Shown here piece by piece: positions 27,174-49,623 of a stretch of 64,000 nt of DNA. This DNA comes from an uncultured Gammaproteobacteria bacterium (GTDB lineage: Bacteria; Patescibacteriota; Patescibacteriia; XYB2-FULL-38-15). Numbering within the stretch: the first letter of the stretch is position 1; each line of letters begins with the position of its first letter. The DNA lies in NCBI GenBank assembly GCA_965231095.1, contig OZ246416.1, positions 50,938-114,937 on the forward strand, written 5' to 3'. The notes beneath the pieces are model-generated. The model worked only from the letters and a program-made list of their open reading frames with translations, was not told where the DNA came from and ran no database searches. The translations under genes were made by a program, and so were the position numbers.

Positions 27174-28460
27174 ATGAAAAAATATTTTATTATTTCCTAC
27201 GGCTGCCAAATGAATAAGAGCGATTCCGAGCGAGTGGCGGCGGCGCTGGAAAAAATCGGTTATAAGCCCGCTCGGAGCGAAGCGCAGGCTGATTTGGTTG
27301 TGCTCGTAGCGTGCTCCGTGCGGCAGGCGGCGGTGGATCGGCTTTTTGGGAAAGCAAGAGAGTTGGCCAAACTTAAAACTCATAACTTAAAACTTAAAAC
27401 AGTTTTAACCGGTTGCGTTTTGCCGCAGGACAAGAAAAAATTTATAGGCAAATTTGATTTTATTTTAAATTTAGAAGATATCTCAAAATTAAAAAATCCA
27501 AAATCCAAGATACAAGATACTAAATACAAAATACTAAACACGGGCTATTTGCACCTTCAGCCGCGGCGTACGGAAAAATTTCGCGCTTACGTGCCGATTA
27601 TGACCGGCTGTAATAATTTTTGTTCATACTGCGCCGTGCCTTATGTCCGGGGAAGGGAAGCAAGCCGCCCAGCCGCCGAAGTCCTGGCCGAAATAAAAAA
27701 TTTAGCAAAAAATGGCTGCCTTGAGGTGACACTTCTTGGACAAAATGTAAATGCTTATCGGCCGAGTGACGTGAAAATTTTTTCCAAAAAAAATCCATAT
27801 AAGCATCCTTTTGCCGCGCTCTTATGGGAAGCAAATCAAACCCCGGGTATAGAGCGAATATTTTTTACCGCGCCGCATCCGCGCGATATGACGGACGATG
27901 TAATTCGCGCTCTGACTTTACCCAAAATGGTAAATTATTTGCATCTGCCGGTGCAGGCGGGCGATGATGAAGTTTTAAAACGGATGAATCGCCGTTATAC
28001 CGTGGCAGATTATTTAAAATTGGTGGCGAAAATAAAAAAGAAAAAACCGGGCATCGCGCTCGGCACGGATATTATTGTTGGATTTCCCGGCGAAACCAAA
28101 AAGGCGTTTCAAAATACTGTGGAACTTTATAAAAAAGCGGATTTTGATATCGCGTATCTGGCAATATACTCGCCACGGCAGGGGACAGCGGCAGCGAAAT
28201 TAGTTGATGATGTTCCGCGGCAAGAGAAAAAACGTCGGCGGGATATTTTGCAAAAGTTAATGGAGAAAATAGTTTTAGAAAAAAATCAAAAGTATGTCGG
28301 AAAGACAGTGTCAGTTTTGGTTGATAAATTTAAAAACGGCCAGTGTGTCGGTAATTCGCGGGAAATGAAAGTAGTACGATTTTCCGGAAAGAAAAATATG
28401 GTTGGGAAAATTTTTGAGGTTAAAGTTAAAAAAGCGTTGGAGTGGATTTTGGAAGGATAA
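27174..28460 (+). CDS. miaB: radical-SAM methylthiotransferase, MiaB/RimO family, with in-frame low-complexity insert
   Basis: MTTase N-domain YGCQMNKSDSE, radical SAM CNNFCSYC, C-terminal TRAM domain; tandem DNA repeats at 27375-27410 and 27490-27545 encode KLKTHNLKLKT and KSKIQDTKYKILNTG. Confidence 0.8.
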   Translation: MKKYFIISYGCQMNKSDSERVAAALEKIGYKPARSEAQADLVVLVACSVRQAAVDRLFGKARELAKLKTHNLKLKTVLTGCVLPQDKKKFIGKFDFILNLEDISKLKNPKSKIQDTKYKILNTGYLHLQPRRTEKFRAYVPIMTGCNNFCSYCAVPYVRGREASRPAAEVLAEIKNLAKNGCLEVTLLGQNVNAYRPSDVKIFSKKNPYKHPFAALLWEANQTPGIERIFFTAPHPRDMTDDVIRALTLPKMVNYLHLPVQAGDDEVLKRMNRRYTVADYLKLVAKIKKKKPGIALGTDIIVGFPGETKKAFQNTVELYKKADFDIAYLAIYSPRQGTAAAKLVDDVPRQEKKRRRDILQKLMEKIVLEKNQKYVGKTVSVLVDKFKNGQCVGNSREMKVVRFSGKKNMVGKIFEVKVKKALEWILEG

Positions 28461-28495
28461 AAAAAGGGCTCGCTTTGAGGTGGAGCCCGTACCAT
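28461..28495 (-). terminator. intrinsic terminator of island B operon (also downstream of miaB)
   Basis: Minus strand GGGCTCcacctcaaagcGAGCCCttttttt. Confidence 0.6.
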
Positions 28496-28505
28496 TTGCT
28501 GTCCG

Positions 28506-28754
28506 CTAGCCGATCCTTTGGACGACTTTGACATCGTGGATCTTCTGGACGTCGAACCAGTGAGTTGCTTCGCAGAGCGGTTTGTGGGGTTGATCGTACC
28601 CGCAGGGCAAGAGTTGGAAGATGTGACCATGGACCGTGATCACCTCGCCGATAAAAGCGTCCCATGGGTCGACCCACAATTGTTTTCCCTCTTTAGCCGT
28701 CTTCACAAAAGAGATCAACTTGCCGAGGTACCTTTCGGCCGATGCTTCAGCCAT
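28506..28754 (-). CDS. GC-rich island B gene 3: 83-aa soluble His/Cys-containing protein (hypothetical)
   Basis: MAEASAERYLGK...ITVHGHIFQLLPCGYDQPHKPLCEATHW; SD GAGGAGGAGG; start overlaps stop of upstream gene (gATGgcTGA). Confidence 0.55.
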   Translation of the reverse strand: MAEASAERYLGKLISFVKTAKEGKQLWVDPWDAFIGEVITVHGHIFQLLPCGYDQPHKPLCEATHWFDVQKIHDVKVVQRIG

Positions 28755-28980
28755 CGTCTTCCTCCTCCTCTTCTTCGCAGTTTTTCTTGCGGGCGCGGCG
28801 GAGAGATTCAGCCACGCAAATGACAAGGACGACGGTCATGCCGACAAGCACGGCGATCATGTAGGCCTTTCGCCAGAAGGTCAGTCCCTCGGCGGGAAGA
28901 ACCACAATGACGCCGATCACGCAGAGAATCGCGAGTAGGGCGAAGAACAGAGCGCGTAGCACGCTCCAGAGTTGTTTCAT
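28747..28980 (-). CDS. GC-rich island B gene 2: 77-aa two-TM membrane protein with poly-Glu/Asp C-terminal tail (holin-like topology)
   Basis: MKQLWSVLRALFFALLAILCVIGVIVVLPAEGLTFWRKAYMIAVLVGMTVVLVICVAESLRRARKKNCEEEEEEDDG; SD GGGGGGAG; ATGA start/stop overlap with gene 1. Confidence 0.55.
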   Translation of the reverse strand: MKQLWSVLRALFFALLAILCVIGVIVVLPAEGLTFWRKAYMIAVLVGMTVVLVICVAESLRRARKKNCEEEEEEDDG

Positions 28981-29210
28981 GGGCGTGACTCCCCCCAACG
29001 CCGCCGGGCGAAAAGCGATGCCACCGAGGTGCCGACAACCGAAAGAGCAATCCCGACGAAGCATCCAAGGATCACTTCCGTCTTCAGCTCTCCGAAGAGG
29101 TTGGTATGCGCCGCCAGGGGAATCGCCGCGGCCAGGGTGCATCCGATCAGGGCGAAGACGAGCAGACAACGGCCCGTCCTATCCTCACGTCGCGATTCTT
29201 CAAGAGTCAT
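28977..29210 (-). CDS. GC-rich island B gene 1: 77-aa two-TM membrane protein (holin/antiholin-like topology)
   Basis: MTLEESRREDRTGRCLLVFALIGCTLAAAIPLAAHTNLFGELKTEVILGCFVGIALSVVGTSVASLFARRRWGESRP; SD GGAGGAAG 2 nt before ATG. Confidence 0.55.
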   Translation of the reverse strand: MTLEESRREDRTGRCLLVFALIGCTLAAAIPLAAHTNLFGELKTEVILGCFVGIALSVVGTSVASLFARRRWGESRP

Positions 29211-29248
29211 GGCTTCCTCCTTTGCCACTTATAAGTTAATATAAAAAG

Positions 29249-30232
29249 ATGAAAGTGTCAAGAATTAAACCCCGCCTAAAGGCGGGACTCCGATCGGAGT
29301 ATAAATTGCCAAAACTAATTGTTATTTTAGGTCCGACGGCGTCGGGAAAGACGGGCTTGTCTTTGAAATTGGCAAAAAAATTTGGTGGAGAAATCGTGAA
29401 TGCCGACTCGCGGCAAGTTTATAAAAAAATGGATATTGGAACTGGAAAAGTTGAAAATAAAAAAGGAGTAAGGCATTATTTGTTGGACGTGGTCAATCCC
29501 GACGAAGAGTTTACTTTGGCAGGTTATAAAAAAAAAGCCGTGGCGGCGATTGACCATATTTTGAAACGTGGGAAAACCCCGTTTTTAGTCGGTGGCACTG
29601 GGTTATATATTCAAGCCATCGTGGACAACTTAACTATTCCCAGTGTTCCGCCGAATAAGAAACTTCGCACTGAATTCGAGCATGAACTGGCTAAAGCAAA
29701 AGAATTAGGAATTAAGAAGTATGAATTAAGAGTTTTGGAGAAGTGGTTTAAGAAATTATTAAAACTTGATCCTTGCGTAAAAGATGTAGTGGACGCTAAA
29801 AATCCGCGGAGAATAATTCGGGCGCTGGAAATTTGTCTTGCAACCGGCCGGCCGTTTTCAAAAATGCGGGGAAAGGGCGAGCCGTTGTTTCACGCGCTAC
29901 AACTTGGCATCACCATGCCGCGAGAAAAACTTTATAAAAATATTGATGATCGCGTAGACGAAATGATTAAAGACGGGTTAATAGAGGAGACAAAAAAATT
30001 ATTAAAAAAATATAATCCGAATATCCCATCAATGAGCGGGATTGGATATAAAGAAATAGGGGACTATCTGGGTGGAAGCTATGATTTAGATGAGGCGGCA
30101 GAGAAAATTAAATTTCGAACGCACGCGTACGCTCGGCGGCAGATGACGTGGTTCCGCCGTGGTAAAAGAATTAAGTGGATAAAAAATTATAAAGAAGCGG
30201 AACGAAAAATTGGTAAATGGCTAAATGGTTAA
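29249..30232 (+). CDS. miaA: tRNA dimethylallyltransferase; real start probably the SD-preceded TTG near 29309 (the first ~60 nt as tracked look like island B promoter/operator sequence)
   Basis: P-loop ILGPTASGKT, DSRQVYK motif; annotated N-terminal 20 aa are GC-rich and contain hairpins and the palindrome ACTCCGATCGGAGT. Confidence 0.8.
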   Translation: MKVSRIKPRLKAGLRSEYKLPKLIVILGPTASGKTGLSLKLAKKFGGEIVNADSRQVYKKMDIGTGKVENKKGVRHYLLDVVNPDEEFTLAGYKKKAVAAIDHILKRGKTPFLVGGTGLYIQAIVDNLTIPSVPPNKKLRTEFEHELAKAKELGIKKYELRVLEKWFKKLLKLDPCVKDVVDAKNPRRIIRALEICLATGRPFSKMRGKGEPLFHALQLGITMPREKLYKNIDDRVDEMIKDGLIEETKKLLKKYNPNIPSMSGIGYKEIGDYLGGSYDLDEAAEKIKFRTHAYARRQMTWFRRGKRIKWIKNYKEAERKIGKWLNG

Positions 30233-30284
30233 ATTGTTAAAACAAAAACGCCCCGGGATATAACCGAGGTGTTTTTTTATTTTT

Positions 30285-31850
30285 TTATGACAACTTCTTT
30301 TTAATAATTTCTTCGGCGACTTTTGGATTGGCCTTTCCTTGAGTTTTTTTCATTGTCTGGCCGATGAAGAATTGGAGAAGCGCTAGTTTACCTTGTTTAT
30401 ATTCCGCTACTTCCTCGGGATGTTCAGCGATCAGCGCGTCAATTATTTTTTCAAGTTCCCCGGTATCGCTAATTTGGCCAAGATTTTTACTTTCCATAAT
30501 CTGCGAAGGATCGCCGCCGGTCATCATCATTTCTTCAAGAATTTTTAAGGCCGTCGGACCGGAAATTTTATTTTGATAAATCATGGTGATAAATTCGGCA
30601 AAATTTTCCGGAGTGATTTTCAAGCGGCGAATATCAATTTTATTGTCCGCCATCAAACCGCCGAGTTTATTGATAAGCCATCCGGCGAGGAGGCGAACTA
30701 ATTTATGTTTATGCTTTTCCCAAATTTCTTTTTCCGTGCCTTCTACTTCTTCCAGCGACAAAAGCCATGACTGAAGTTCGGAAATAACGTTTTCCGCGTA
30801 GCTAGCTAATTTTTTATCTTCAACTAAAATTCGCGTTTCTTCTTCGGTAAATTCGTATTGAGTTATAAATCGGATTTTTTTGGCGCGCGGCAATTCGGGC
30901 AGATGGCCGATAACTTTATCGCGTAATTTACTTAAATCAAGTGGCGGCAAATCCGGTTCGGGAAAATAGCGATAATCATTTTCCGCTTCTTTGGTGCGCT
31001 GCGGAACGGTTTTCTGCCCCGCATCATCCCAGCCGCGAGTCGTCGTGACGGCCGGCGGTTTTCCGGCTTCCCAAAGTTCGGTTTGTCTTTTTATTTCATA
31101 CTCAAGCGCTCGCTCAACCGCCCGGAAAGAATTTAAATTTTTAATTTCCGTTTTCGCATTAAGTTTAAGAAGATTTTTTTCTTTAGCAGGATTATCCAAA
31201 GCTTCTCGAAGAGAAATATTGGCGTCGCAGCGGAGATGCCCCTTTTCCATATCGGCATCGGAAATTTCAAGATAGCGGGCAATGAGCCGCAATTCTTGCA
31301 TAAAAATTTTTGCTTCAAGTGGTGAATGCAAATCCGGTTCAGTGACAATCTCCAAAAGCGGCGTGCCGGAACGGTTGTAATCAATCAGGCTGTATTTTCC
31401 GTCTTCGCTATGGAAATTTTTAGCCGCGTCTTCTTCAAGATGGACGCGGTTGATTTTTATTTTTGCCCAAGGGCGTTGTTTTTTTTCATCCTTGGTCGGA
31501 ATATCAATTTCCAGAAATCCGCCCAGACAGACAGGTTTGTCGTATTGAGAAATTTGATAACCCTTTGGCAGATCAGGATAAAAATATTGTTTGCGGTCAA
31601 ATTTTGATTCATCTTGGATTTTACAATTCAAAGCCATGGCCAGAAGTCCCGCCCATTCGAGCGCCTGCTCATTTATGACTGGCAATGTGCCGGGATGGCC
31701 CATGCAGATCGGGCAGACGGTAGAGTTCGGCGGTTGGTCTTCGCCGGTATTGTCGCAACCGCAGAACATTTTTGATTTTGTTTTCAATTGGACATGGATT
31801 TCAAGCCCAATGACCGGGACGAGATGCATAAAAAATAATTCAAAAATCAA
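30285..31850 (-). CDS. gatB: aspartyl/glutamyl-tRNA amidotransferase subunit B
   Basis: VIGLEIHVQLKTKSKMFCGCDN...CPICMGHPGTLPV, GatB/YqeY C-terminal domain; start may be the internal Met (MHLVPVIGLE) at 31829. Confidence 0.9.
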   Translation of the reverse strand: MIFELFFMHLVPVIGLEIHVQLKTKSKMFCGCDNTGEDQPPNSTVCPICMGHPGTLPVINEQALEWAGLLAMALNCKIQDESKFDRKQYFYPDLPKGYQISQYDKPVCLGGFLEIDIPTKDEKKQRPWAKIKINRVHLEEDAAKNFHSEDGKYSLIDYNRSGTPLLEIVTEPDLHSPLEAKIFMQELRLIARYLEISDADMEKGHLRCDANISLREALDNPAKEKNLLKLNAKTEIKNLNSFRAVERALEYEIKRQTELWEAGKPPAVTTTRGWDDAGQKTVPQRTKEAENDYRYFPEPDLPPLDLSKLRDKVIGHLPELPRAKKIRFITQYEFTEEETRILVEDKKLASYAENVISELQSWLLSLEEVEGTEKEIWEKHKHKLVRLLAGWLINKLGGLMADNKIDIRRLKITPENFAEFITMIYQNKISGPTALKILEEMMMTGGDPSQIMESKNLGQISDTGELEKIIDALIAEHPEEVAEYKQGKLALLQFFIGQTMKKTQGKANPKVAEEIIKKKLS

Positions 31851-31885
31851 AAGTCAAAATGCAAAATTAATTTTGTAATAAAAAT

Positions 31886-32656
31886 TTATTGTTTAGCCGG
31901 CGTGGGCGCAATTTCTTTTTTAACGGAGTTGTAGAGGATTAAACCTAACGCGTAGAAAAGCGGAGCGGCTAAAACAGGAATGATGTTGGCGATAATCATT
32001 GACCACCAGGTTGAGGCGGCGGTAAAGCTTGCGCCGGGTCGGCCCGCGGCAAAATCAATTATGTAAATAGGAACCAAGATGATAATTAAAAGAATTATGC
32101 CGTAAACAAAATTTGGGGCAATCCACCGCCAGAGAAGCGGCCAAAATTTTCCCTTTACCAATTCGCGGCTCGCGGAAAGCGCCTCGGTTCCTTTTTTATT
32201 TTCCAGAACAAGAACATAAAGGCTGAAGGAAAACCAGACAGAAAAAATTATGCCGGGGATAATCAAAAGCAGCGTGCCAAAACCAACCGCAAGGGAAACC
32301 AAAATGGAAAGGATTATTCCGGAAAAAGTTTTTGAATAACTCAAATTATAAATATTTTTAAAATTGACTGGTTCTTTCTTAATTGTGGCGTCCATTACTA
32401 AAATCAAAGCGATTGTGACCAAAACGCTCAACACCCACGAGGCGAGGGAAAGGATGAAGTTCGTCGCCAAAAAGGCCACGGGACTTGAGATAAAGTAGGG
32501 GAGTAAAGACAAGATGACGGACGGAATAAGGAGCCAGGCAATAATTTTGGCGAAGAGGGCAAAATTATTTTTGTAAAGCGTCCAGCTCTCGCGCATTAGG
32601 GCGCCGACTTGAATAAGCATAAGATTACGAATTAAAGCGAATAAAAGCGAATACAA
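31886..32656 (-). CDS. polytopic integral membrane protein (hypothetical)
   Basis: 256 aa, ~6 predicted TM helices, no recognised motif. Confidence 0.5.
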   Translation of the reverse strand: MYSLLFALIRNLMLIQVGALMRESWTLYKNNFALFAKIIAWLLIPSVILSLLPYFISSPVAFLATNFILSLASWVLSVLVTIALILVMDATIKKEPVNFKNIYNLSYSKTFSGIILSILVSLAVGFGTLLLIIPGIIFSVWFSFSLYVLVLENKKGTEALSASRELVKGKFWPLLWRWIAPNFVYGIILLIIILVPIYIIDFAAGRPGASFTAASTWWSMIIANIIPVLAAPLFYALGLILYNSVKKEIAPTPAKQ

Positions 32657-32686
32657 ATAAATTTGTATTGATTCGCTATGATTTGC

Positions 32687-33418
32687 TTAAGATTCGCATT
32701 TATTTATTATAAAATTTTTCCAAATATTAACCGCTTCTTCCATTGTATCATAAACGGTTTTGTCTGTCTTTAAATAAACAAATTCACTGCCGCGCGATTC
32801 CATGAGTTTCCGAAACCACGGCGCGTCGTATCTTTTGGCTATTTTTTCCAAGAATGGCAATTTTTCAAAAATAGAATTATCTTTTTTATCACGTTCGGCA
32901 AGGCGCGCCATTGCTTCTTTGGGATCAACTTGGGCAATGATCAATAAATCCGGCCGGTACTCCAGCGCAAGTTTATTGCCGGGCAATTCCATAATTTTTT
33001 CAAGAGGCAACGCCTCCTCCTGAATCGGCTGATAAATTATTGAAGTTGTGACGCCGCGTTCTTGAAAAATAATTTTTCCTTGGGCAAGCGCCGGAATAAT
33101 TACGCGGCGGTATAAAATTTCCCGGTCGAGAGAAAAAGCTTGAGAGGTAGTCCAGGCAGAATAATGGCGATTATTTTCGCGGACAATTTCTTCGCGAATC
33201 GCCTGGCCAACCATGGCAAAAGTCGGTTCATTGGAAATGATAACGTCAAACTCGGCAATTTCTTCCGGCTCCGGGAAGGTGTGTTTTTCTTTCCAATAAT
33301 TTCTTATATCAAAAATCTTCATCTTTTCCGCCGCCGCCCAGTCGGCGAAAGTTTTCAAAATTACGCCTTTGCCGCTGCCGTCAATTCCATCAATCATGAC
33401 AAGGATACCCTTTTTCAT
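32687..33418 (-). CDS. deoxynucleoside / thymidylate kinase-like P-loop kinase
   Basis: VMIDGIDGSGKG P-loop resembling dNK/Tmk families; embedded in dTMP-synthesis gene block. Confidence 0.55.
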   Translation of the reverse strand: MKKGILVMIDGIDGSGKGVILKTFADWAAAEKMKIFDIRNYWKEKHTFPEPEEIAEFDVIISNEPTFAMVGQAIREEIVRENNRHYSAWTTSQAFSLDREILYRRVIIPALAQGKIIFQERGVTTSIIYQPIQEEALPLEKIMELPGNKLALEYRPDLLIIAQVDPKEAMARLAERDKKDNSIFEKLPFLEKIAKRYDAPWFRKLMESRGSEFVYLKTDKTVYDTMEEAVNIWKNFIINKCES

Positions 33419-33987
33419 ATTTTATTTAAAATATTTTCTATTTGGGTGTAAGCATTTTCCAGCGTGCTGGTATTTAAAATTGTATAATCAGCCATGGCGA
33501 TTGGCCCACCCTTTTCTATATTTTCAATTTCCGCATAATCACGATCCCTCGCCGCTTCGGGGGTAGAAGAGCGATATTTTAATTTTGAATCGTCTCCATG
33601 GCGCGCGGCGCGGCCGGACAATCTTTTGTATCTTAATTTCGGCGGGGCGTAAACCGCGATAACAATTAAATTTTCTCCGTATTTATCTTTTAAAATTTTA
33701 TATTCCGACCAACTGTAAAGTCCGTCGCCAACCACATCGCCGTTTTTCAAAGCCTCATCAAATTTTGGGATATTTAAAGTAGCAAAAGCGCCAGGGCCAT
33801 ATTGTTTTCGGAGTTCTTCGCGGATTGGCCGCTCGTTTTCTTCGGTCGGCGCGAGCCCTCGTTTTTTAACTTCGTCCAGGGTGATCTGGCCAAAACGAAT
33901 ATATTGATAACCTTGTTTTTTTAAAAAATCGGCCACCTCGGTTTTTCCCGCACCAGGCATCCCGACTAGGGCGACAAAGTTATTCAT
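33415..33987 (-). CDS. P-loop nucleotide kinase (adenylate/dNMP kinase-like)
   Basis: VALVGMPGAGKTEVADFL Walker A; 190 aa. Confidence 0.5.
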   Translation of the reverse strand: MNNFVALVGMPGAGKTEVADFLKKQGYQYIRFGQITLDEVKKRGLAPTEENERPIREELRKQYGPGAFATLNIPKFDEALKNGDVVGDGLYSWSEYKILKDKYGENLIVIAVYAPPKLRYKRLSGRAARHGDDSKLKYRSSTPEAARDRDYAEIENIEKGGPIAMADYTILNTSTLENAYTQIENILNKI

Positions 33988-33994
33988 AAATGTT

Positions 33995-34492
33995 TTATTT
34001 TACCAATTCAATAAATTTAAATTTCAATCCGTTGTGTTCCTGTGTTTCAGATTCATTTATAATTTTAAATTTAGAATAATCTGGGAAAAAAGTGTCAACT
34101 TCTGCGGGCTCATCATCAACAATTGTTAAATAAAGTTTTTCCACGCGCGGGAGAAGCTGCGTATAAATTGACGCGCCGCCGATGACAAAAATTTCTTTGT
34201 GATCGTTTGCCAATTTTTCTTCTTCAATTTTTGCGCGCTCCAAGGCTTCGTCCGGAGAAGAAACAATAATGCAACCTGGCGCGGTAAAATCTTTGTTTTT
34301 GGTGATAACAATATTTGTGCGGTTCGGAAGCGGGCGGCCGAGCGATATAAAAGTATTGCCACCCATAATAACCGTATGGCCGGAAGTAATTTTTTTGAAA
34401 TGTTCCAAATCAGGCGGAAGATTCCAAAGTAATTTATTTTTAAAACCGATGGCGCGGTTTTTGTTTGTAACCGCGATGGCTGAAATTGTCAT
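33995..34492 (-). CDS. folA: dihydrofolate reductase
   Basis: ISAIAVTNKNRAIGFKNKLLWNLPPDLEHFKKITSGHTVIMG, GGASIY motif. Confidence 0.85.
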   Translation of the reverse strand: MTISAIAVTNKNRAIGFKNKLLWNLPPDLEHFKKITSGHTVIMGGNTFISLGRPLPNRTNIVITKNKDFTAPGCIIVSSPDEALERAKIEEEKLANDHKEIFVIGGASIYTQLLPRVEKLYLTIVDDEPAEVDTFFPDYSKFKIINESETQEHNGLKFKFIELVK

Positions 34493-39008: not shown

Positions 39009-39434
39009 TTATCCAACGACTTCCAAACCCATCTGCCGCGCCGTGCCTTCAATAGTTCTCATCGCCGCGTCAATATCATGAGCATTCAAGTCCGGCATTT
39101 TTTTCTCGGCGATTTCCCGGATTTGCGCTTTTGTCACTTTGCCAACTTTTTCCTGAAGCGGTTTTCCTGAACCCTTGGCGATTCCCGCTGCTTTTTTCAA
39201 AAGTTCAGCCGCCGGAGGAGTTTTTAAAATGAAAGTATAGGTGCGGTCTTCGTAAACCGTGATTTCCGCCGGAATAACATCGCCGGCCATTTTTGCAGTC
39301 GCGGCATTGAACTTCGTGCAGAACTCAGCGATATTCAAACCATGCTGACCCAAGGCCGGGCCGATTGGCGGCGCGGGGTTTGCTTTAGCAGCCTCAATTT
39401 GTAATTTTATTACTGTCTTAATTTTTTTTGCCAT
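39009..39434 (-). CDS. rplK: 50S ribosomal protein L11
   Basis: [35 protein letters not shown]. Confidence 0.9.
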
Positions 39435-40047: not shown

Positions 40048-40094
40048 AAATAAAATTCAAAAGTCAAAATTCAAAAGTCAAAAGTTTTGTAAAA

Positions 40095-40295
40095 TTACTT
40101 TATATATTTTTCCAAGAGCCAAGTAAAAAGAAAATCAAGCGCTCCAAGAAAAACAGCCACGCCCAAACTTATGCCGATCACGGCCAGAGTGTGGTTTGTG
40201 GTTTCGCGTCTTGTCGGCCAGACAACTTTCTTTAATTCCCGATAAGAATCGCGAAAGTAGTTTGTTAATTTGTTGTTGGGAATGGATAGTTGCAT
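40095..40295 (-). CDS. secE: preprotein translocase subunit SecE
   Basis: 66 aa, single C-terminal TM; conserved position upstream of nusG. Confidence 0.8.
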   Translation of the reverse strand: MQLSIPNNKLTNYFRDSYRELKKVVWPTRRETTNHTLAVIGISLGVAVFLGALDFLFTWLLEKYIK

Positions 40296-40448
40296 GTTTT
40301 TATGTATTTTAAGCGGTTTTTAGCAAAATTTATGGTATTTAAAACAGCCCTGGGGGCTATTTAAATAAAGTATAGCACAGGGTGGAAAAAGCGCAAGGGC
40401 TGGGGGGTGATATAAATAAAAATGCGCCAAATTTGATAACAATTTTAG

Positions 40449-42506
<2,058 letters not shown>

Positions 42507-42717
42507 TTAAACCTCTCCGCCCACGGCGGAAAATGAGGTGAAATTGGCTAATATTTATTAAGTTATTATAGCATAGATTATTTTGTAAAACAAGGGTTTA
42601 ATGTTTGACTTTTTATAATAAAAAAAGATAGGATAAAAGCGCTTCTCATGGCGAGAAGACCCGGGCCACGGGCAGTGGCAAATTACCTTCGGGCTTACAG
42701 TCCGGAAGGAGACAGAA

Positions 42718-43632
42718 ATGGCGAAGTATGAAAAGCTGAACCTGGGTCAGATTGAAGCGCTCGTGAACATCTTGGGTGGCATGGAGGTCGTGAAGAAGAT
42801 TCTTCGCGGGACGAAGAAGCCTCTTCCCCCGGACAAAGGCTTTCGGTCCCTTTTTGACAACTACGGCCGCCGCGTTGCGCCTCCTACGATGAGCGACAAG
42901 GGAGGAGCCGATCCGGAGGTGTGTTTGGCTCAGCCGGCGATGCATCTTCCACCGGGACCGGGAACAAGGTTCAAGGGTTTGTGCGAACGCCTTGGCTGGC
43001 AGAACCAGATGACTCCGGAAGAATTTCGCGCGCGGGTGGACAAGGCGGTAGAGAAGATCAACTTCGGCAGCATCAGAGAAGAGGTGAGGGGAATTTTGGG
43101 TGGTGTGTATCTGCCCTTTGGTCTTCCGCAGGTGACCTCCAGCGATTGCGGGGAGATCCTTGACGAACTCGGCTTGATCAATGCGGTTGAGCGTGTTTTC
43201 AAGGAAAGATTTCCCGAGGGGCAGTTTTTCGGACAAGAAAAATCCCTGAAGGGAGGCTTCCGCTTGATCGAAGGAAGTCGCCACGAGCGATTTTTGGAGG
43301 CCTTGACAAAGGAGCCGGTCGTTGCCATCTACTTCCCATTGGCGCTCCAAGGGTATTTGCCCGATAAGGCCGTCGAGCAGATGGAGAGCCTGCCGGAAGA
43401 GTTTCTGCTTTCCGGTGTGGTTGATACAGCGGCGGCGATCATGATGTATCCGGAAGTTCTACTTCGGGACACCTGCGTGCCGCAGCTCGGATGTTCGGCA
43501 GTGAAGCGCTGGGTGACCGGAGTTTCCTCATTCGATGTCAGTGACGGCAGCGACAAGATCACGCTCGCCTTCGGGGGGTGCCAGATCTTTGGGCGCGGCA
43601 AGTTTACTTCCGGCCTCACCGTCATCGCGTAG
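42718..43632 (+). CDS. GC-rich island C: hypothetical 304-aa protein, no recognisable domain
   Basis: ~60% GC; SD GGAAGGAGA 6 nt before ATG; TTGACT promoter-like element at 42605; downstream terminator 43695-43728. Confidence 0.6.
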   Translation: MAKYEKLNLGQIEALVNILGGMEVVKKILRGTKKPLPPDKGFRSLFDNYGRRVAPPTMSDKGGADPEVCLAQPAMHLPPGPGTRFKGLCERLGWQNQMTPEEFRARVDKAVEKINFGSIREEVRGILGGVYLPFGLPQVTSSDCGEILDELGLINAVERVFKERFPEGQFFGQEKSLKGGFRLIEGSRHERFLEALTKEPVVAIYFPLALQGYLPDKAVEQMESLPEEFLLSGVVDTAAAIMMYPEVLLRDTCVPQLGCSAVKRWVTGVSSFDVSDGSDKITLAFGGCQIFGRGKFTSGLTVIA

Positions 43633-43694
43633 TGCAGAGTCGTTGTGCCTTGAGTTAAACCCGATAAGGGTTTGATTCTTGGACGCTAGTCGTC

Positions 43695-43728
43695 TGAGCG
43701 GATCCCGTGCGGTCCGCTCTTTTTTATA
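43695..43728 (+). terminator. intrinsic terminator of island C
   Basis: GAGCGGAtcccgtgcggTCCGCTCtttttt. Confidence 0.65.
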
Positions 43729-43783
43729 TTCGCCCAGATTTCATTTTTTTGGTATAATATAAATGTAATTAAAATTATTTTTT

Positions 43784-44653
43784 ATGGCAGTAGGAGTTGA
43801 GGGCCGAATGGCCGCACAATTGGACCGTGAACGGGTTTGGGGCTTTACTGATGATGAGAAATTTAACCGTGAGATTGCGCGGCCATGGAAAGACTCCGCT
43901 TTTAATCCGGAAGATTTTGTCGGCCGGCCGTACGCGCGCGCGGAAATTGCCGCGGATTTAGAGAGAGTTTCGGAAATAAAAAAATCTCCGGAGTTTGTGC
44001 ACGAACGAAGGAGCGAGGCGGTTGCTCTGGAATATGTTTTGATGGAAGGAATAAAAGTTCATGGTTGGTTTGGGGACAACGTGGAGTCGGTTCAAAAAAC
44101 TTCAGAATACGACGATGTGATGAATGGCGCGGATTTTGTCGTGACATTTCACGATGAGGATACGGATAGATTTATCCATTTGGCAGTTGATGCTACGACT
44201 TCTTCGGACGAAATGGTTCTTTGGCGTAAGGCGGAAAAAAATTTTGAAAAATTGGCCGGAGGGAAAATGGCAAAAATAAAATATTTTGAAGATCCGGATG
44301 AAACAGCGGGCGAGGTTCAAATGCCGCGAGTTGTTTTGGCCTTAAGCCCGGAAAAAACCGTGGCGTTACAAAAATTAATGTCCAATCCCAAAAACGCGGT
44401 AGGGGACGCGGCGGAAAAATATGAGTTTCTCGCTTCAGTGGAAAATCAATTATTAAAATTTATAAATTATATTTTGATTCGCGGAAAATTTCTCGGTGAA
44501 GGAAGAGACCTTAAAAGTTACGGCGAAGTTTTGGAGTTTATGTCGCGCCATGATGGAGATTTGGATGAAAAAACAAAAAATTTAATTTCAGCGCACATGG
44601 ATGTCTTGCAGTTTGTGTATGCCTCCGCGCCAAGACCGAAATCCTTGCATTAA
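43784..44653 (+). CDS. hypothetical protein (intermediate GC ~48%)
   Basis: 289 aa, no recognised motif; TATAAT -10 upstream. Confidence 0.45.
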   Translation: MAVGVEGRMAAQLDRERVWGFTDDEKFNREIARPWKDSAFNPEDFVGRPYARAEIAADLERVSEIKKSPEFVHERRSEAVALEYVLMEGIKVHGWFGDNVESVQKTSEYDDVMNGADFVVTFHDEDTDRFIHLAVDATTSSDEMVLWRKAEKNFEKLAGGKMAKIKYFEDPDETAGEVQMPRVVLALSPEKTVALQKLMSNPKNAVGDAAEKYEFLASVENQLLKFINYILIRGKFLGEGRDLKSYGEVLEFMSRHDGDLDEKTKNLISAHMDVLQFVYASAPRPKSLH

Positions 44654-44670
44654 ATTAATCATACAAAAAT

Positions 44671-45537
44671 ATGGACAACCAAAATCAGCCGGCGGATTTT
44701 ACCGAAAGCCAATTAAAAGTCGCTTCATGGTATGTCTCCCATAAAATTTTGTTGAAGAAAATTTTTATAGGTTTTTTGATTTTTTTGTGCGCGATTTTTT
44801 GGGGATTTGGGCTTTATGGTTTGATAAATTATTATTTTATTGAAGGTCCGAGTTTTAATTTGGCGATCAGAGAATTGAGCCGCGGAACGGATTATTCCAT
44901 TATCAATCAAAAAATTCAGCCAAAAGGCTTAGATATTGGAACAACGACAATTTTTTCTTCGGGAAAGGGGAGATATGATTTTGTGGGAAAGATTTTTAAT
45001 TCCTCCGCCGATTGGCGCGCGGAATTTACTTATGATTTTTTAGTGGATGGGGTGGCGCGAGCGGGGAAGAGCGGATTTATTTTGCCCGGCGAGGAAAAAT
45101 ATATTTTTGAACTTGGCGTGGAGGCGCCGGCAAAACCGCGTTCCGCGACTTTAGAAATTAAAGAGATAAAATGGCAGAGAATTGACGCCCACGAAATTTC
45201 CGATTACGCCGCCTGGCAGGACGAGCGCTTGAATTTTCCCGTGGCCGACGTGAAATTTACTCCGGCGGCGGTCGGAGAAAATATTCCGATAAGCCGAGCG
45301 TCTTTTACGGCGCGAAACGCGACAGCTTTCAGTTTTTGGGATGTGGGTTTTGCTATTTTTCTTTATCGCGGAAGTTCGGTTGCCAGCGTAAATTACGTGA
45401 CACTTGAGGAATTTCGTTCTGGACAAACCCGCCCGGTTGAAGTAAGTTGGTTTGAAACATTGCCAAGCATTACGCAAGTAAAAGTCGTACCGGAAGTGAA
45501 TATTTTTGATCCAAAAGTTTTCATGCCGGTGAATTAA
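44671..45537 (+). CDS. hypothetical membrane-anchored protein
   Basis: 288 aa, N-terminal TM region ILLKKIFIGFLIFLCAIFWGFGLYGLINYYF. Confidence 0.45.
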   Translation: MDNQNQPADFTESQLKVASWYVSHKILLKKIFIGFLIFLCAIFWGFGLYGLINYYFIEGPSFNLAIRELSRGTDYSIINQKIQPKGLDIGTTTIFSSGKGRYDFVGKIFNSSADWRAEFTYDFLVDGVARAGKSGFILPGEEKYIFELGVEAPAKPRSATLEIKEIKWQRIDAHEISDYAAWQDERLNFPVADVKFTPAAVGENIPISRASFTARNATAFSFWDVGFAIFLYRGSSVASVNYVTLEEFRSGQTRPVEVSWFETLPSITQVKVVPEVNIFDPKVFMPVN

Positions 45538-45621
45538 TTTAAAAGTCAAAGGTCAAAAATCAAAGGTCAAAAATTAAAGTCGAAATCCGAAATTTTGTCT
45601 TTTGAATTTTGACTTTTTGTT

Positions 45622-46716
45622 ATGCTCTCAAAATATTTTTCATTTTTAAAACGTTTTGACTGGGTGCTCGTCGTTGCAGTTTTTTTGCTTTTGGTTTTAA
45701 GTTTGGTCGCGCTCTACAGCGTTTCTTTAAGCAAAACAAATCCTGATTTTTTAAATTTGAAAAAGCAGATGATTTTCATTTTGGTCGGGTTGGTCGGATT
45801 TTTCGCCTTGTGCGCCATTGATTACAAGTGGTTGAAGTTTTACAGCATTCCCATTTATGGTTTGGCCGCCGCGCTCCTCCTCGCCGTTTTGATTTTTGGC
45901 CGGGTTATTCGCGGAACTCAAGGATGGTTTGGATTTGGGTGGTTTAATTTTCAGCCGGTGGAATTTGCCAAGCTCGCGATGATTATTTTTTTGGCAAAAT
46001 ATTTTTCCCGCGGGGCGCATGAAATTTTTCGCTTTCGGCATATTATGGTTAGCGGAATTTTTTCGGCAATTTTAATTGGCCTTGTTTTACTTCAACCCGA
46101 TTTTGGTTCCGCGCTTGTGCTCTTTTTTTTGTGGCTTCTGATGTTATTTTTAATTGGAATAAAGCGATCGCATTTGGTTGTTCTTTTACTTTTAGTTGCG
46201 ACGTTTTTGGCCGGTTCGTGGCTTTTTATTTTCCAAGATTATCAGAAAGAAAGAATTTTGGGATTTTTTGATCCTTCGCGCGATCCACTCGGCCGCGGTT
46301 ACAACATTACTCAAGCGCAAATCGCCGTTGGTTCCGGCCAAATACTCGGCCGCGGAATCGGTTTTGGGCCGCAAAGCCAATTGCGTTTTGTGCCGGAAAA
46401 TCAGACGGATTTTATTTTCGCCGTTTTGGCCGAAGAACTCGGATTTTTGGGAGCGGCGTTGATTCTTGCGCTTTGGGGAATTATTTTTTGGCGGATTCTT
46501 CGGATTGCCCGGCGGGCGCGAGATGATTTCAGTTTATTTTTTGCGGCCGGGTCGGCGATTGTTTTTTTGATTCAGATTTTTATTAATATCGGAATGACGG
46601 TCGGTGTGGCGCCGGTGACGGGCATTTCTCTGCCCTTTGTAAGTTATGGGGGAAGCGCGCTAGTTGTAAATTTGGCCATGGTCGGGATTTTGGAAAGTAT
46701 CGCGGCGAGAAGTTAA
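45622..46716 (+). CDS. SEDS family peptidoglycan glycosyltransferase (FtsW/RodA)
   Basis: 10 TM helices, NFQPVEFAKL, GISLPFVSYGGSALV motifs. Confidence 0.85.
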   Translation: MLSKYFSFLKRFDWVLVVAVFLLLVLSLVALYSVSLSKTNPDFLNLKKQMIFILVGLVGFFALCAIDYKWLKFYSIPIYGLAAALLLAVLIFGRVIRGTQGWFGFGWFNFQPVEFAKLAMIIFLAKYFSRGAHEIFRFRHIMVSGIFSAILIGLVLLQPDFGSALVLFFLWLLMLFLIGIKRSHLVVLLLLVATFLAGSWLFIFQDYQKERILGFFDPSRDPLGRGYNITQAQIAVGSGQILGRGIGFGPQSQLRFVPENQTDFIFAVLAEELGFLGAALILALWGIIFWRILRIARRARDDFSLFFAAGSAIVFLIQIFINIGMTVGVAPVTGISLPFVSYGGSALVVNLAMVGILESIAARS

Positions 46717-46812
46717 ATTGTTAGCCATTTAGCCATGGTTCATCTTGACTATTTTTATCTTTACTGCTAACATCTAATTATCGTATTTTAATTTAATTAA
46801 GCAGAGAATCTT

Positions 46813-47514
46813 ATGACCTTGAGTCTAAATGTCAAAAAACGAGAAGTGACTGGGAAGGGAGTAAAGAATCTCCGTAAGCAAAATTTGATTCCGGCCGTTA
46901 TCTATGGAAAAGACGTGCCGTCCCAAAATTTGGCTGTGGAGTATCTTCCCTTCAATAAACTTTACAGGGAAGCCGGAGAAAGTACGCTCATTGATTTAAA
47001 AGTTGATGACGCCGCGCCGGTAAAAGTTTTGGTGCAGGAAGTGCAATCGGATCCACTGACGGGAAAATTCGCGCACGTTGATTTTCGCCAAATTAAGATG
47101 ACGGAGAAACTCAAGGTGGACGCGCTCTTGAAATTTATTAATGAATCGCCGGCGGTTAAAGAACTTGGCGGAACTTTTGTCCACAGCATGGATAAAGTGG
47201 AAATTGAATGTTTACCGAGCGATTTGGTTCACGAAATTGAAGTTGATATTTCCGGGCTTAAAACTTTTGAAGACAGGATTCATATTAGAGATTTGAAAGT
47301 TTCTTCCGGTGTTAAAATTTTATCTGATATGAACGCGACGATTGCCGCGGTTGAAGCGCCTTTGACTGAAGAAGAATTGAAGGCAGAACTTGAAACGCCG
47401 GTCGTCGAGAAAGTTGAAGAAGTTGGCGTGGTGGAAAAAGAAAAGAAAGAAGGCGAAGAAGAGGCTGCTGCCGCTCCGGAAGCTCAAGGCGAGAAAAAGG
47501 AAGAGAAAAAATAA
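46813..47514 (+). CDS. rplY: 50S ribosomal protein L25 / general stress protein Ctc with Lys/Glu-rich C-terminal tail
   Basis: MTLSLNVKKREVTGKGVKNLRKQNLIPAVIYGK; two-domain Ctc form. Confidence 0.85.
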   Translation: MTLSLNVKKREVTGKGVKNLRKQNLIPAVIYGKDVPSQNLAVEYLPFNKLYREAGESTLIDLKVDDAAPVKVLVQEVQSDPLTGKFAHVDFRQIKMTEKLKVDALLKFINESPAVKELGGTFVHSMDKVEIECLPSDLVHEIEVDISGLKTFEDRIHIRDLKVSSGVKILSDMNATIAAVEAPLTEEELKAELETPVVEKVEEVGVVEKEKKEGEEEAAAAPEAQGEKKEEKK

Positions 47515-47536
47515 AAAAATTATCAGAATTATTTTG

Positions 47537-48628
47537 ATGGAGAAATTATTCAAAAAAATAATTGCTTTTGTAAAGAAACAACCGTCGATCTGGCTGGTTG
47601 TTTCTTTGTTATTAATTTCAGTTTTTGTTGTGGCCGGCGGAGGTTATCTACTTTTATCCCGAACTTCTTTTTTGGATTTTTTTTCACGGGCGGGAGCCGA
47701 GCAGAGAAATGAAGAAAACGAAACAGCGCCAGCCGCGGAATTTCGCCGGTTGATTGACGGGGTGAAAGTTGACGACGAAGCAAAAATAAATCCCGCGCTT
47801 TTTGCCGTGCAGATTGAAAATATGGTCGACGCTCGTCCGCTCTCGGGGGTGTCTCGCGCAAATTTAGTTTATGAAACTTTGGCCGAGGCCGGGATCACAA
47901 GATTTCTCGCGATTTATGCCGCAGACAGCGATGTTTCGGAAATCGGACCGGTTCGAAGCGCCCGGCCGTATTTTCTGGATTGGGTTTCTGAATTTGGCGC
48001 GCTCTACGCCCATTCCGGCGGCAGTCCGGAAGCGCTGCGCTTGATTCCCCAGTACGATATTTTGGATTTGAACGAATTTGCTTACGGAAGATTTTTTTGG
48101 CGAGCAAAGTCAAGATATATGCCGCATAATCTTTACACTTCAACTGAATTGCTGAACGAAGCTTTTGCGGCAAAAGAAGGCGAGATAAAAAATTTTCGCG
48201 GCTGGCAGTTTAAAGATGAAGCCTTATTGGAGGCGCGCCCGGAAGAAGAGAAAAGAATTAAAATTTATTTTTCCACAAAAACCTACGAAGCTGGATGGCA
48301 GTATAGTCGCGAGACAAATGATTATTTGAGATATCAAGCTGGATTGATCCAGCAAGACAGAGATGGCGGCGAAGTTCGGGCAAAAAATATTGTAGTGCAG
48401 TTTACGCGCGTGGTGGTTTTGGATGAAATTGGGAGAAAAGATATTGATACAGTTGGAGGGGGCGAGGCAATTGTTTTTCAGGATGGAGTCCGGATTGAAG
48501 GAACTTGGAAAAAAGAGGCGCGCGGGGAGCGGACAAGTTTTTATGATACAGTCGGAGTAGAAATAAAATTCAACCCAGGAGTGACTTGGGTTGAAGTGGT
48601 GCCAAACGGAACGGAAATTGAATTTTAA
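47537..48628 (+). CDS. DUF3048-like secreted/membrane-anchored protein
   Basis: N-terminal TM then conserved GVSRANLVYETLAEAGITRFLAIYAADS...SARPYFLDW; track start 47390 is out-of-frame readthrough of rplY tail. Confidence 0.55.
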   Translation: MEKLFKKIIAFVKKQPSIWLVVSLLLISVFVVAGGGYLLLSRTSFLDFFSRAGAEQRNEENETAPAAEFRRLIDGVKVDDEAKINPALFAVQIENMVDARPLSGVSRANLVYETLAEAGITRFLAIYAADSDVSEIGPVRSARPYFLDWVSEFGALYAHSGGSPEALRLIPQYDILDLNEFAYGRFFWRAKSRYMPHNLYTSTELLNEAFAAKEGEIKNFRGWQFKDEALLEARPEEEKRIKIYFSTKTYEAGWQYSRETNDYLRYQAGLIQQDRDGGEVRAKNIVVQFTRVVVLDEIGRKDIDTVGGGEAIVFQDGVRIEGTWKKEARGERTSFYDTVGVEIKFNPGVTWVEVVPNGTEIEF

Positions 48629-48738
48629 TTTTATATTTTAAAAATAACCAAACGATCTCGGCCGGCGAGGTCTTTTTTTACCCTCACACCAATGCATTGG
48701 TGTGAGGGTTTATTTCTCTTTGGGCTGGGGGTATAATT

Positions 48739-49623
48739 TTAAATTTCAAAAATAGCAATTCTATTTCTTCCCGAAAGATCTTGTTTAATCTTAATTTTTG
48801 CGGAAGGGAAGCGGCGTTTGATTAATTTTGTGATGGATTTTTTTTGAGAAGGGTCGATTTCAAAGATTGAAGTAATGGGTGACGAGTAATGGGTAACGAG
48901 GAATTCTATTTGTTGGAGGAGCTCGCGGTAATAATTTAAGCCATCGGTACCGCCGTCAAGCGCCGTTCGTGGTTCGTATTTTTTTATTTCCGGCTGGGTT
49001 TTTTGCCATTGGCGGGTTGTGAGATACGGAAGGTTGGCGACAATTAATAAATTTTCAATTTTCAATTTACAATTTTCAATTTTGCGAATTACAGGTTTTA
49101 GTAAGTCGCCATGGATTAGGGTGACGGCCGCCTCGTGGTGTTTAATATTTTTTCTTGCCACCTCCATGGCGCCGGAGGAAATTTCCGTGGCGAAGATTTT
49201 GGCATTGGGCAGACGGCGGGCAAGTGCGATGGCGATGGCCCCGCTTCCGGTTCCGACATCGACGATTGATGTATCTTGTATCTTGTATTTTGTATTTTGT
49301 ATTTTTCTCAAAACTTCCTCCACTAAAATTTCCGTTTCGGGGCGGGGGATTAAAACATTTTTGTTTACAAAAAAATCCAGGCCAAAAAATTCTTTGAGGC
49401 CAGTGATGTAGGCGATTGGTTCATGTTTGGCGCGGCGGGCGATAAGTTTTTTAAATTTTAACAATTGTGCCGCCGTCAATTTTTTTTCAGAATGCGCGTA
49501 TAAAAATTCTCGCGGTTTTTTTATGACAAAAGATAAAAGAATCTCGGCGTCCAAAGACGGGGAGAGAGTTTTTGATTTTTTTAAAATTTTTATCGCCCAG
49601 ACGATGGATTGTTTGATGGTCAT
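48739..49623 (-). CDS. prmC: release factor glutamine N5-methyltransferase PrmC/HemK with several in-frame tandem-repeat inserts
   Basis: SAM motif VDVGTGSGAIAIALA, NLPY substrate motif; in-frame repeats at 48860-48895, 49040-49090, 49265-49300. Confidence 0.85.
   Translation of the reverse strand: MTIKQSIVWAIKILKKSKTLSPSLDAEILLSFVIKKPREFLYAHSEKKLTAAQLLKFKKLIARRAKHEPIAYITGLKEFFGLDFFVNKNVLIPRPETEILVEEVLRKIQNTKYKIQDTSIVDVGTGSGAIAIALARRLPNAKIFATEISSGAMEVARKNIKHHEAAVTLIHGDLLKPVIRKIENCKLKIENLLIVANLPYLTTRQWQKTQPEIKKYEPRTALDGGTDGLNYYRELLQQIEFLVTHYSSPITSIFEIDPSQKKSITKLIKRRFPSAKIKIKQDLSGRNRIAIFEI

Follow-up and report, generated by a model that had tools for sequence, protein, structure and literature searches.

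Several groups of bacteria are known to carry tandem repeats with a unit of seven nucleotides, and the heptanucleotide repeats called STRR have reportedly been described in cyanobacteria (Mazel 1990, via PMC4692102). In marine Beggiatoaceae, the unit TAACTGA is repeated head-to-tail in 2-6 copies, mostly a few nucleotides 5' of starts without a canonical ribosome-binding site; the same repeats occur in some cyanobacteria and Bacteroidetes, with a minority in open reading frames (ORFs) (MacGregor 2015, PMC4679880). In Nostoc PCC 7120, contiguous (TTTTGAA)3-4 and GAC(C/T)AAT x8 lie near start codons or promoters (bioRxiv 10.1101/2022.06.06.494920). The GGGAATC and GGGGAYT heptameric repeats of Xanthomonas and Nostoc are enriched between genes, form inverted stem-loop pairs, and vary between close relatives (Rehm 2015, PMC4692102). 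Furthermore, heptanucleotides are the commonest long simple sequence repeats (SSRs) in many bacteria, with polymerase slippage proposed, and the repeat unit within coding regions is mostly a multiple of 3 nt, as two later papers summarise the survey (Mrazek 2007 via PMC4679880, PMC4692102). In addition, tandem repeats of Borg extrachromosomal elements add disordered protein regions (Schoelmerich 2023, PMC9879509). Our search outside the subscription journals found no literature on heptamer repeats in the Candidate Phyla Radiation (CPR), or Patescibacteria. Here we describe heptanucleotide arrays in 64 kb of DNA (contig OZ246416.1, positions 50,938 to 114,937; 43.8% G+C; hereafter the window) from a member of this group, including those read in frame within the enzyme genes miaB, miaA, and prmC.

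Heptanucleotide arrays in the window and in other CPR lineages

Using Tandem Repeats Finder and our own period scan, we found about 19 heptanucleotide arrays of 4-5 units in the window after merging. Six of them are in frame within ORFs (two in miaB, one in miaA, and three in prmC), and 13 are non-coding. The non-coding share of the window is only about 12%, yet it holds 13 of the 19 arrays, so that the arrays are enriched per base outside genes. We then compared periods 2 to 21 with dinucleotide-preserving shuffles. At a score of at least 10, there were 13 tracts of period 7 (0.4 expected), 16 of period 14 (0.35 expected), and 7 of period 21 (0.25 expected), and this comparison gave no comparable excess in the window at periods 2-6, 8-13, or 15-20. 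A search of the whole window against Rfam at gathering thresholds returned two tRNAs only and no family at any array.

The same period was found in other CPR lineages. In 1.3 Mb from 80 loci, which were sampled via their MiaB genes, there were 71 period-7 arrays, compared with 1, 9, and 7 arrays at periods 6, 8, and 9. Array lengths in these loci peak sharply at 31 nt, or 4.4 units, and, at period 7 alone, the lengths of perfect runs show a further mode at 30-33 nt above the expected decay, which makes their distribution bimodal. Furthermore, 64 of the 110 arrays (58%) in 1.48 Mb of CPR sequence are in frame within long ORFs. In a small control, 50 kb of the AT-rich and gene-dense phage T4, there were no period-7 tracts at the same threshold. 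We conclude that the arrays are part of a genome-wide, and seemingly CPR-wide, population of heptanucleotide arrays. A previous sequence-only reading of this DNA had pointed to five of the arrays, a small part of the total, and had missed the window-wide excess of period 7.

That reading had also proposed that one AT-rich word, shared by miaB and prmC, was spreading between the two genes as a single element. The sharing itself is well above chance: AARATACAARATAC with at most one mismatch has 8 matches in the window where 0.15 would be expected, every one of them within the two arrays. Transfer of one word or element between the genes is not supported, given the many different units of the other arrays and the order of the unit variants, which differs between the two genes (Table 1). 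No unit dominates the window; it contains TAACTGA-like, GACTTTT/GAATTTT, ACAATTA, GACNGAC, AGTAATT, and other units. Meanwhile, 106 CPR arrays fell into 61 unit classes. The probability that a pair of arrays shares a class is about 0.017, so that chance alone gives about 1-3 such pairs among the 11-19 arrays of a window. Since chance sharing is expected and the unit order differs, the match between miaB and prmC needs no gene-to-gene transfer. We also considered miaB array 2 as a copy of prmC array 1, or the reverse, and rejected it on the order of the variants. In our reading, MiaB and PrmC share AAAATAC/AAGATAC as one of a few tolerated units, and no sequence moved between the genes.

Arrays within miaB and prmC

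The miaB gene is a 428-aa ORF (27174-28460, plus strand) that scored 401.7 bits against TIGR01574 MiaB in a family profile search (cut-off 355.3). Its product contains UPF0004, Radical_SAM, and TRAM domains and the radical-SAM motif CxxxCxxC. The prmC gene is a 294-aa ORF (48739-49623, minus strand) with 256.5 bits against TIGR03534 PrmC (cut-off 199.1); the GTGSG motif is present, and NLPY stands for NPPY. Both genes were correctly named by the sequence-only reading, being above the curated TIGRFAM cut-offs with the expected domains and motifs. The nearest database proteins of both come from Patescibacteria genomes, several of which carry the label Falkowbacteria. All five segments quoted by that reading are present in the sequence, in the Tandem Repeats Finder output, and in our own scan; the coordinates that it gave were within about 10 nt, and its translations were right. 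The region of miaB array 2 translates as ...KNPKSKIQDTKYKILNTG... in the 428-aa ORF, and PrmC carries RKIQNTKYKIQDTS directly before VDVGTGSG.

In the AlphaFold model of PrmC (mean pLDDT, the per-residue confidence, 92.9), each of the three arrays forms a helix end and the loop before a beta strand. Site 1 lengthens a helix, continues as a lower-confidence loop before strand 1, and contains the lowest-confidence segment of the model. Site 3 runs from the end of a helix through a turn into the beginning of a strand. Meanwhile, MiaB site 2 lies in the interdomain linker, which is 6 residues shorter in the window than in the solved Bacteroides MiaB (7MJZ). The description of these segments as microsatellite-like sequences, read in frame and tolerated as linkers, holds for tandem heptamers at such helix ends, loops, and linkers.

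Fit of 7-nt units to coding sequence

Since three units fill exactly 7 codons (21 nt), a run of at least three units is read in all three phases, and every entry frame yields the same cyclic heptapeptide. For example, (AAAATAC)n encodes KIQNTKY, the variant AAGATAC turns N into D, and (AARATAC)n encodes KIQ(N/D)TKY. The sense strand of the 64 coding arrays is biased: A exceeds T in 53 of them, and T exceeds A in 7. This bias could be explained by the peptides of the reverse orientation, since antisense translations suggest that it would encode hydrophobic peptides of the FVFCILY type. The coding arrays also avoid stop codons. In 48 of the 64, the consensus unit contains no stop, whereas a unit that is stop-free on both strands was found in just 2 of 46 non-coding arrays. 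Every coding array with a stop-containing unit is imperfect, and in the cases inspected the deviating unit sits where the stop would be in frame. For instance, one unit of prmC array 2 is altered to TGT where an in-frame TGA otherwise falls.

A scan of metagenome contigs for (AARATAC)3 gave at least 80 loci, and among the matches listed at least 36 long ORFs read the repeat in sense and at least 6 in antisense. The sequences that flank the peptide KIQ(N/D)T(K/R)YKIQ vary widely among the listed ORFs, which by eye resemble KsgA, Fmt, RsmI, and MurB among others.

Orthologous sites in relatives

A scan of representative genomes with MiaB gave only distant relatives, with at most 54% identity. 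The syntenic loci of close relatives used for comparison were L081 and L082 (MiaB 79% identical), L083 (MiaB 78% identical), and L204, L205, and L206 (PrmC about 68-78% identical).

At MiaB site 1, the array is identical to that of L081 at 31 of 32 nt. In L083 the same 32 positions read AAAATAAAAAATGTTAATCCCAATTTTAAAAC (KIKNVNPNFKT) and align without a gap, and the N-P or a similar motif is kept in more distant MiaB proteins. Thus, the array at this site is a derived overwrite of the same length. At MiaB site 2, L081 has (AAGTTCC)x3.7, L083 lacks an array, and KIQN-type arrays, one or two per gene, are present in other relatives. Across 78 MiaB genes of CPR, the same three sites were repeatedly found to hold arrays.

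At PrmC site 1, the window has 8 codons more than L204 and L206, shares the array with L205, and is only 4 residues longer than the Thermotoga HemK. Site 2 carries an array in all four genomes; the unit is AAAATTG in the window and L204, and AAAATCT or AAATCTA in L205 and L206, and the lengths differ by 1-3 codons. Site 3 has a constant length in all homologues, with a 14-nt period in the window, a strong (AATTACY)x4.8 in L204, and a weak period 7 in L205 and L206. Most of 31 PrmC relatives have peptides of 7-residue period at the three sites, encoded by many different units. All four combinations of the site 1 and site 2 states occur among the relatives, which could reflect repeated loss, repeated gain, or recombination. 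In addition, the miaA product is 10 aa longer at its array than that of L083, and L081 has a different repeat-derived insert, HPNPLPRGERG, at the same point.

The sequence-only reading had taken the segments for lineage-specific insertions and had proposed an alignment of orthologues. Such an alignment shows that other CPR lineages do have heptamer-encoded segments at the same sites, mostly with different units. The word inserted is wrong for MiaB site 1 and PrmC site 3, where sequence was overwritten at unchanged length. It is partly right elsewhere, where 3-10 residues were added at places in which homologue length already varies. We also dropped the idea of a single fixed insertion size, since the differences between orthologues are 0, +3, +5, +8, +10, and about +10-11 aa.

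Other kinds of in-frame insert were seen at the same hot spots in relatives. They include HPNPLPRGERG, PPHLNPLPNGAR..GERVGVRG, and VIARS.ATKQSR..DCHA..SLAMT, and are located in L081 miaA (about 12080-12140), in the PrmC proteins P0144, P0147, and P0148, and in the MiaB proteins P0022 and P0031. From their sequences, inserts of the HPNPLPRGERG, PPHLNPLPNGAR, and VIARS types look like translations of other dispersed repeat elements.

Age, constraint, and assembly support

The shared arrays were compared codon by codon at residues conserved in both genomes, with expectations from codon-specific rates in the same genome pairs (individual tail probabilities 0.024, 0.021, and 0.085). They proved better conserved than the remainder of their genes. 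In miaB array 1, 10 of 11 codons are identical to those of L081 (6.7 expected), and in prmC array 2 all 11 testable codons are identical to those of L204 (8.0 expected). Where a relative lacks the shared array, its site is completely different, and in relatives further off the arrays differ in unit and length. An actively spreading element had been suggested for this locus. This does not agree with a miaB site-1 array that is almost unchanged in a relative with 79% identical MiaB, nor with PrmC sites 1 and 2, which are common to relatives of about 74-78% identity. Judging from these sequence comparisons, the arrays are not rapidly mutating microsatellites caught in the act, and their spread is not recent.

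The source of the window is a metagenome-assembled genome (MAG), and collapsed or chimeric low-complexity sequence could in principle give such arrays. We consider an assembly or sequencing artefact extremely improbable. All of the coding arrays keep the reading frame, and dozens of MAGs from different groups contain arrays of a comparable kind. Furthermore, the Logan assembly of SRR8863431 (L207) is 100% identical to the window over positions 29009-49434 (20.4 kb), a stretch that spans miaA, prmC, and the intergenic arrays between them, with the two miaB arrays outside it. The miaB site-1 array was recovered base for base in L081 (from JGI, the Joint Genome Institute) and L082 (Logan), two samples of one species. 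The agreement of independent assemblies makes an assembler artefact unlikely.

Arrays between genes

Nine of the non-coding arrays in the window end 0-10 nt 5' of an ATG, and none of the nine has a Shine-Dalgarno (SD) motif (Table 1). An SD-like motif was found within 20 nt of the first ATG in 13 of 55 window genes, and most starts are preceded by A/T-rich sequence; to judge from these starts, initiation in this organism appears to be largely SD-independent. A nearby downstream ORF follows 34 of the non-coding arrays in the CPR loci, and 16 of these end at most 12 nt from its first ATG. The closeness of the arrays to start codons is suggestive only, since short spacers make it partly unavoidable.

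Table 1. Positions of the arrays in the window, with their units, encoded peptides, and neighbouring start codons
Feature	Position	Strand	Description
miaB array 1	27369-27400	+	(AAACTTA)x4.6; encodes KLKTHNLKLKT; end of N-terminal domain
miaB array 2	27493-27538	+	AAAATCC x2, AAGATAC x2, TAAATAC, AAAATAC; encodes KNPKSKIQDTKYKILN; UPF0004/radical-SAM linker
miaA array	29700-29731	+	AAGAATT, AGGAATT, AAGAAGT, ATGAATT; encodes KELGIKKYELR
prmC array 3	48871-48904	-	14-nt period (two 7-mers); encodes VTHYSSPITS
prmC array 2	49050-49083	-	Sense (AAAATTG)x4.9; encodes KIENCKLKIEN
prmC array 1	49270-49305	-	Sense AAAATAC x3, then AAGATAC x2; encodes KIQNTKYKIQDT; adjoins GTGSG motif, which binds S-adenosylmethionine (SAM)
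Nine array-led starts	~7941, 8878, 9505, 31830, 40047 (-); 45622, 54537, 59666, 60600 (+)		
TAACTGA-type intergenic array	7944-7977	-	Fills spacer; ends 5 nt 5' of ATG 7939-7941
(TTCTCAA)x3 in sense	8887-8907	-	Ends 8 nt 5' of likely start (~8876-8878) of unannotated ORF
(GACNGAC)n and (GTTGTWA)n pair	9513-9585		Divergent intergenic hairpin; left array ends 7 nt 5' of minus-strand ORF start
U-rich array (mRNA sense)	31840-31867	-	About 10 nt 5' of gatB ATG; absent in L081 and L083
(GACTTTT GAATTTT)n array	40052-40085	-	Ends 4 nt 5' of nusG ATG
Two inverted arrays	45541-45617	+	Fill ftsW upstream spacer; right arm ends 4 nt before ATG
rpsB-tsf spacer	54417-54527	+	Arrays 54417-54440 and 54495-54527 form outer stem round inner GC hairpin; right array ends 9 nt before tsf ATG
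Array over GAPDH stop codon	57015-57045	+	Followed by GC-rich inverted repeat and T run, terminator-like
(ACAATTA/ACAGTTG)n	59626-59665	+	Abuts ATG of 299-aa hydrophobic membrane-like ORF (59666-60565)
Reverse-complement (TTAACTG/TTAATTG)n	60561-60595	+	Starts at stop codon of 299-aa ORF; ends about 9 nt before ATG 60600

Some of the intergenic arrays are paired and fold. The pair at 9513-9585 gives a hairpin of -37.9 kcal/mol (z -7.2) in plus-strand RNA and of -16.1 kcal/mol in the minus strand. The strands differ because C-to-T changes between the two arms leave G-U pairs in place, and a likely -10 box lies 3' of this hairpin. The ftsW hairpin has -21.1 kcal/mol (z -4.1), and L205 and L206 have an unrelated simple hairpin there. 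The rpsB-tsf fold has -45.3 kcal/mol (z -5.0). Folding of the single arrays at 40052, 31840, 7944, 59626, and 60561 gave z near 0. We therefore dropped the idea that every array is a hairpin; only the three inverted pairs fold.

L206 retains the nusG array in its place between secE and nusG, and the aligned spacer has a mean column identity of 87%. This leader (window 40048-40448; L206 19095-19180) is far more conserved than the synonymous sites of the neighbouring genes, and the PrmC of L206 is about 68-70% identical. For most of the other intergenic arrays, relatives have no array at the orthologous position.

These results bear on the possibility that the arrays are selected functional elements, such as binding sites of a multi-domain single-strand binder like ribosomal protein S1 or cold-shock proteins, SD-independent leaders, processing hairpins, or signals of translation pace at domain boundaries. 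The nine array-led starts, the conserved nusG leader, and the strong folds of the inverted pairs, one of them much better on one strand, are what such selection would give, and the excess of synonymous conservation within coding arrays points in the same direction; comparable functions have been proposed for the repeats of Beggiatoaceae and Nostoc. However, the diversity of units makes one sequence-specific binder unlikely, the single arrays are unstructured, most intergenic arrays are missing from close relatives, and the short spacers account for part of the closeness to starts. Furthermore, function gives no reason for a period of 7. We consider direct selection on RNA or DNA quite improbable as the explanation of the arrays.

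Some further features were seen at these places. In the rpsB-tsf spacer, the hairpin region (54470-54539) contains a strong SD-like AAGGAGGGG, followed by a mini-ORF of 16 codons at 54482-54532 (MVVEITRCPLRVTRYL*). The mini-ORF crosses the heptamer array, its stop lying 4 nt short of the tsf ATG (54537), and could function as a leader peptide or in translational coupling. Meanwhile, the 299-aa ORF is bracketed exactly by two reverse-complementary arrays, and the ORFs that flank it resemble, by eye, an Fe-S/FAD oxidoreductase subunit pair and a small HypC-like protein.

Other repeats were noted in the window and in its relatives. In the Moranbacteria-like locus L080, (TGGAACG)x4 at 11643-11671 and its reverse complement at 12040-12061 lie about 370 nt apart just 3' of miaB, and both are in frame in long ORFs; here, too, a segment is enclosed by an inverted pair. 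In the window, a 21-nt unit GACAAGCACGACGATCATGCC is repeated 1.9 times at 28822-28861, within a G+C-rich stretch (about 28500-29240) where several ORFs of about 100 aa overlap on both strands. The gene of ribosomal protein L11 contains a direct repeat of 14 nt, TTTTCCTGAAGCGG x1.7 (39148-39171), which is not of the heptamer type, and the reverse complement of the TTTTCCTGAAGCGG repeat is found in the L11 gene of L206 (20038-20061).

Origin of the arrays

We favour, with moderate confidence, a process at the level of DNA that makes arrays in a 7-nt register, with selection filtering where they survive. The most probable such process is strand slippage or misaligned templated synthesis while DNA is replicated or gaps are filled, which would create the arrays and homogenise them. 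It could either add units or overwrite sequence at unchanged length. Models of templated mutagenesis include a conversion-like correction, and such correction between neighbouring units may extend the slippage idea. In genes, the arrays that persist would be those that are A-rich in sense and hydrophilic (K/N/Q/T/I/E), stop-free or patched by point changes, and placed at helix ends, loops, or domain linkers. Between genes, arrays would gather in short spacers, about half of them directly 5' of start codons. Since some are paired as hairpins and some are conserved, they probably act as leader or processing elements.

Several observations weigh against this reading. Under simple stepwise slippage, copy numbers should be spread broadly or decay, whereas the arrays peak at 4.4 units. 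Steps of a single unit within genes shift the frame. At MiaB site 3, the length classes are 18, 29-30, and 38-40 aa, or about 10-11 aa per array, whereas steps of three units would give 7 aa. In addition, identical-unit pairs among the 106 CPR arrays numbered 94, against 10.8 expected for random 7-mers of the same DNA, so that units recur across distant CPR lineages far above random 7-mers. Over the shared arrays together, 31 of 33 codons are identical at conserved residues against 22.3 expected, which would be unexpected for unstable microsatellites. Furthermore, no copy-number polymorphism was seen in thin data, in which L081 and L082 carry the same arrays and L207 equals the window. Simple slippage thus leaves the peak near 31 nt, the steps of MiaB site 3, the recurrence of units across phyla, and the synonymous conservation unexplained. 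Because of these features, two rivals stay alive, namely the direct selection weighed above and the writing of an array in a single step.

In the single-step explanation, a module of about 24-33 nt would be written or inserted per event, by a reiterative telomerase-like polymerase, a primase-polymerase, or a tiny non-autonomous element, from limited templates. The lengths agree with it in being quantised, both in the 31-nt mode and in the bimodal perfect runs, and so do the steps at MiaB site 3 and the additions of 8 codons at PrmC site 1 and of 10 codons in miaA; several arrays, however, replace sequence at unchanged length. An array at one site is either intact or wholly absent, as expected for a module, but on inspection by eye neither conserved flanks nor terminal repeats nor target-site duplications were noticed. 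The same units occur in distant CPR lineages and even in cyanobacteria (TTTTGAA and TAACTGA), whereas the order of unit variants differs between arrays of the same unit. In addition, coding arrays whose unit contains a stop cannot be insertions of a perfect module, and no candidate gene is evident in the window, though its proteins are not annotated. On balance, we think that discrete writing is unlikely. A miniature mobile element (MITE or small dispersed repeat) was considered separately and rejected, since the unit order differs and inspection noticed no shared flanks.

A more specific proposal is that CPR have a hitherto undescribed directed process that writes or converts stretches of about 31 nt into heptamer arrays from a small vocabulary of units, both between genes, where they would serve as SD-independent leaders or hairpins, and inside essential genes, where loops at the same sites would be overwritten again and again. 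Such a process seems distinctly unlikely to us. If true, it would be a new source of turnover of protein loops in reduced genomes, and it might share its mechanism with the heptamer repeats of cyanobacteria and Beggiatoaceae.

Coding sequence is usually expected to exclude repeats whose unit length is not divisible by three, yet more than half of the 7-nt arrays in the CPR sample are in frame, and they remake loops and linkers of the conserved enzymes MiaB, MiaA, and PrmC. If this is general, very small genomes would have a simple route to fast, lineage-specific change in the loops of their proteins. The arrays can also mislead the annotation and alignment of CPR proteins, since they resemble lineage-specific insertions. 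Why the period is 7 and why the arrays stop near 31 nt are questions open to study with thousands of public genomes.

Comparison with known heptamer repeats

The window contains 7-nt head-to-tail repeats above chance, at many dispersed loci, and they recur in related genomes, as in long heptanucleotide SSRs and STRR. It also contains arrays that end a few nucleotides from SD-less starts, as in the start-proximal heptamers. The arrays at 7944-7977 and 60561-60595 resemble the repeats of Beggiatoaceae most closely, since the former is of the TAACTGA type and the latter has the related unit TTAACTG. Start-adjacent heptamer repeats are thus extended to a third large group with little use of SD sequences. 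However, one unit dominates in Beggiatoaceae and related heptamers are rarely repeated, whereas dozens of units are found here. Furthermore, the ORF repeats of Beggiatoaceae lie at protein ends or in hypothetical proteins, whereas 58% of the CPR arrays are in frame in long ORFs, including those of conserved enzymes, often at sites shared between lineages.

The repeats of Nostoc and the STRR share with the present arrays the 7-nt unit, several families of units per genome, and the adjacency to start codons, and TTTTGAA of Nostoc is the very unit in the nusG, gatB, and ftsW leaders of the window. They belong to another phylum and were described as intergenic candidates for regulation; occupation of housekeeping enzymes in frame and a peak near 31 nt were not reported there. 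The heptamers of Xanthomonas and Nostoc are likewise over-represented at 7 nt, enriched between genes, and found as inverted pairs, but they are G-rich and quadruplex-capable, whereas the present arrays are A/T-rich. Unlike the pattern of the Mrazek survey, as later papers summarise it, a 7-nt unit is common here in coding sequence.

Two other systems have in-gene repeats. In phase-variable contingency loci of Haemophilus, Neisseria, and others, as here, gain or loss of a single 7-nt unit shifts the frame. We rejected such a locus for the present arrays, since the hosts are enzymes of tRNA and release-factor modification and not surface or virulence proteins, all copies seen are in frame, the short, imperfect arrays are conserved between relatives, and no variation in length was observed. 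The Borg repeats resemble the present arrays in that tandem repeats within genes, made at the level of DNA, add lineage-specific peptide segments. The Borg in-gene repeats are said to have unit lengths divisible by 3, to be near-perfect and recent, and to lie on archaeal extrachromosomal elements. The arrays of the window belong to the known kind of heptanucleotide repeats, and they differ from its described members in the many units per genome, the share that is in frame, the fixed sites with changing units, and the narrow peak of length.

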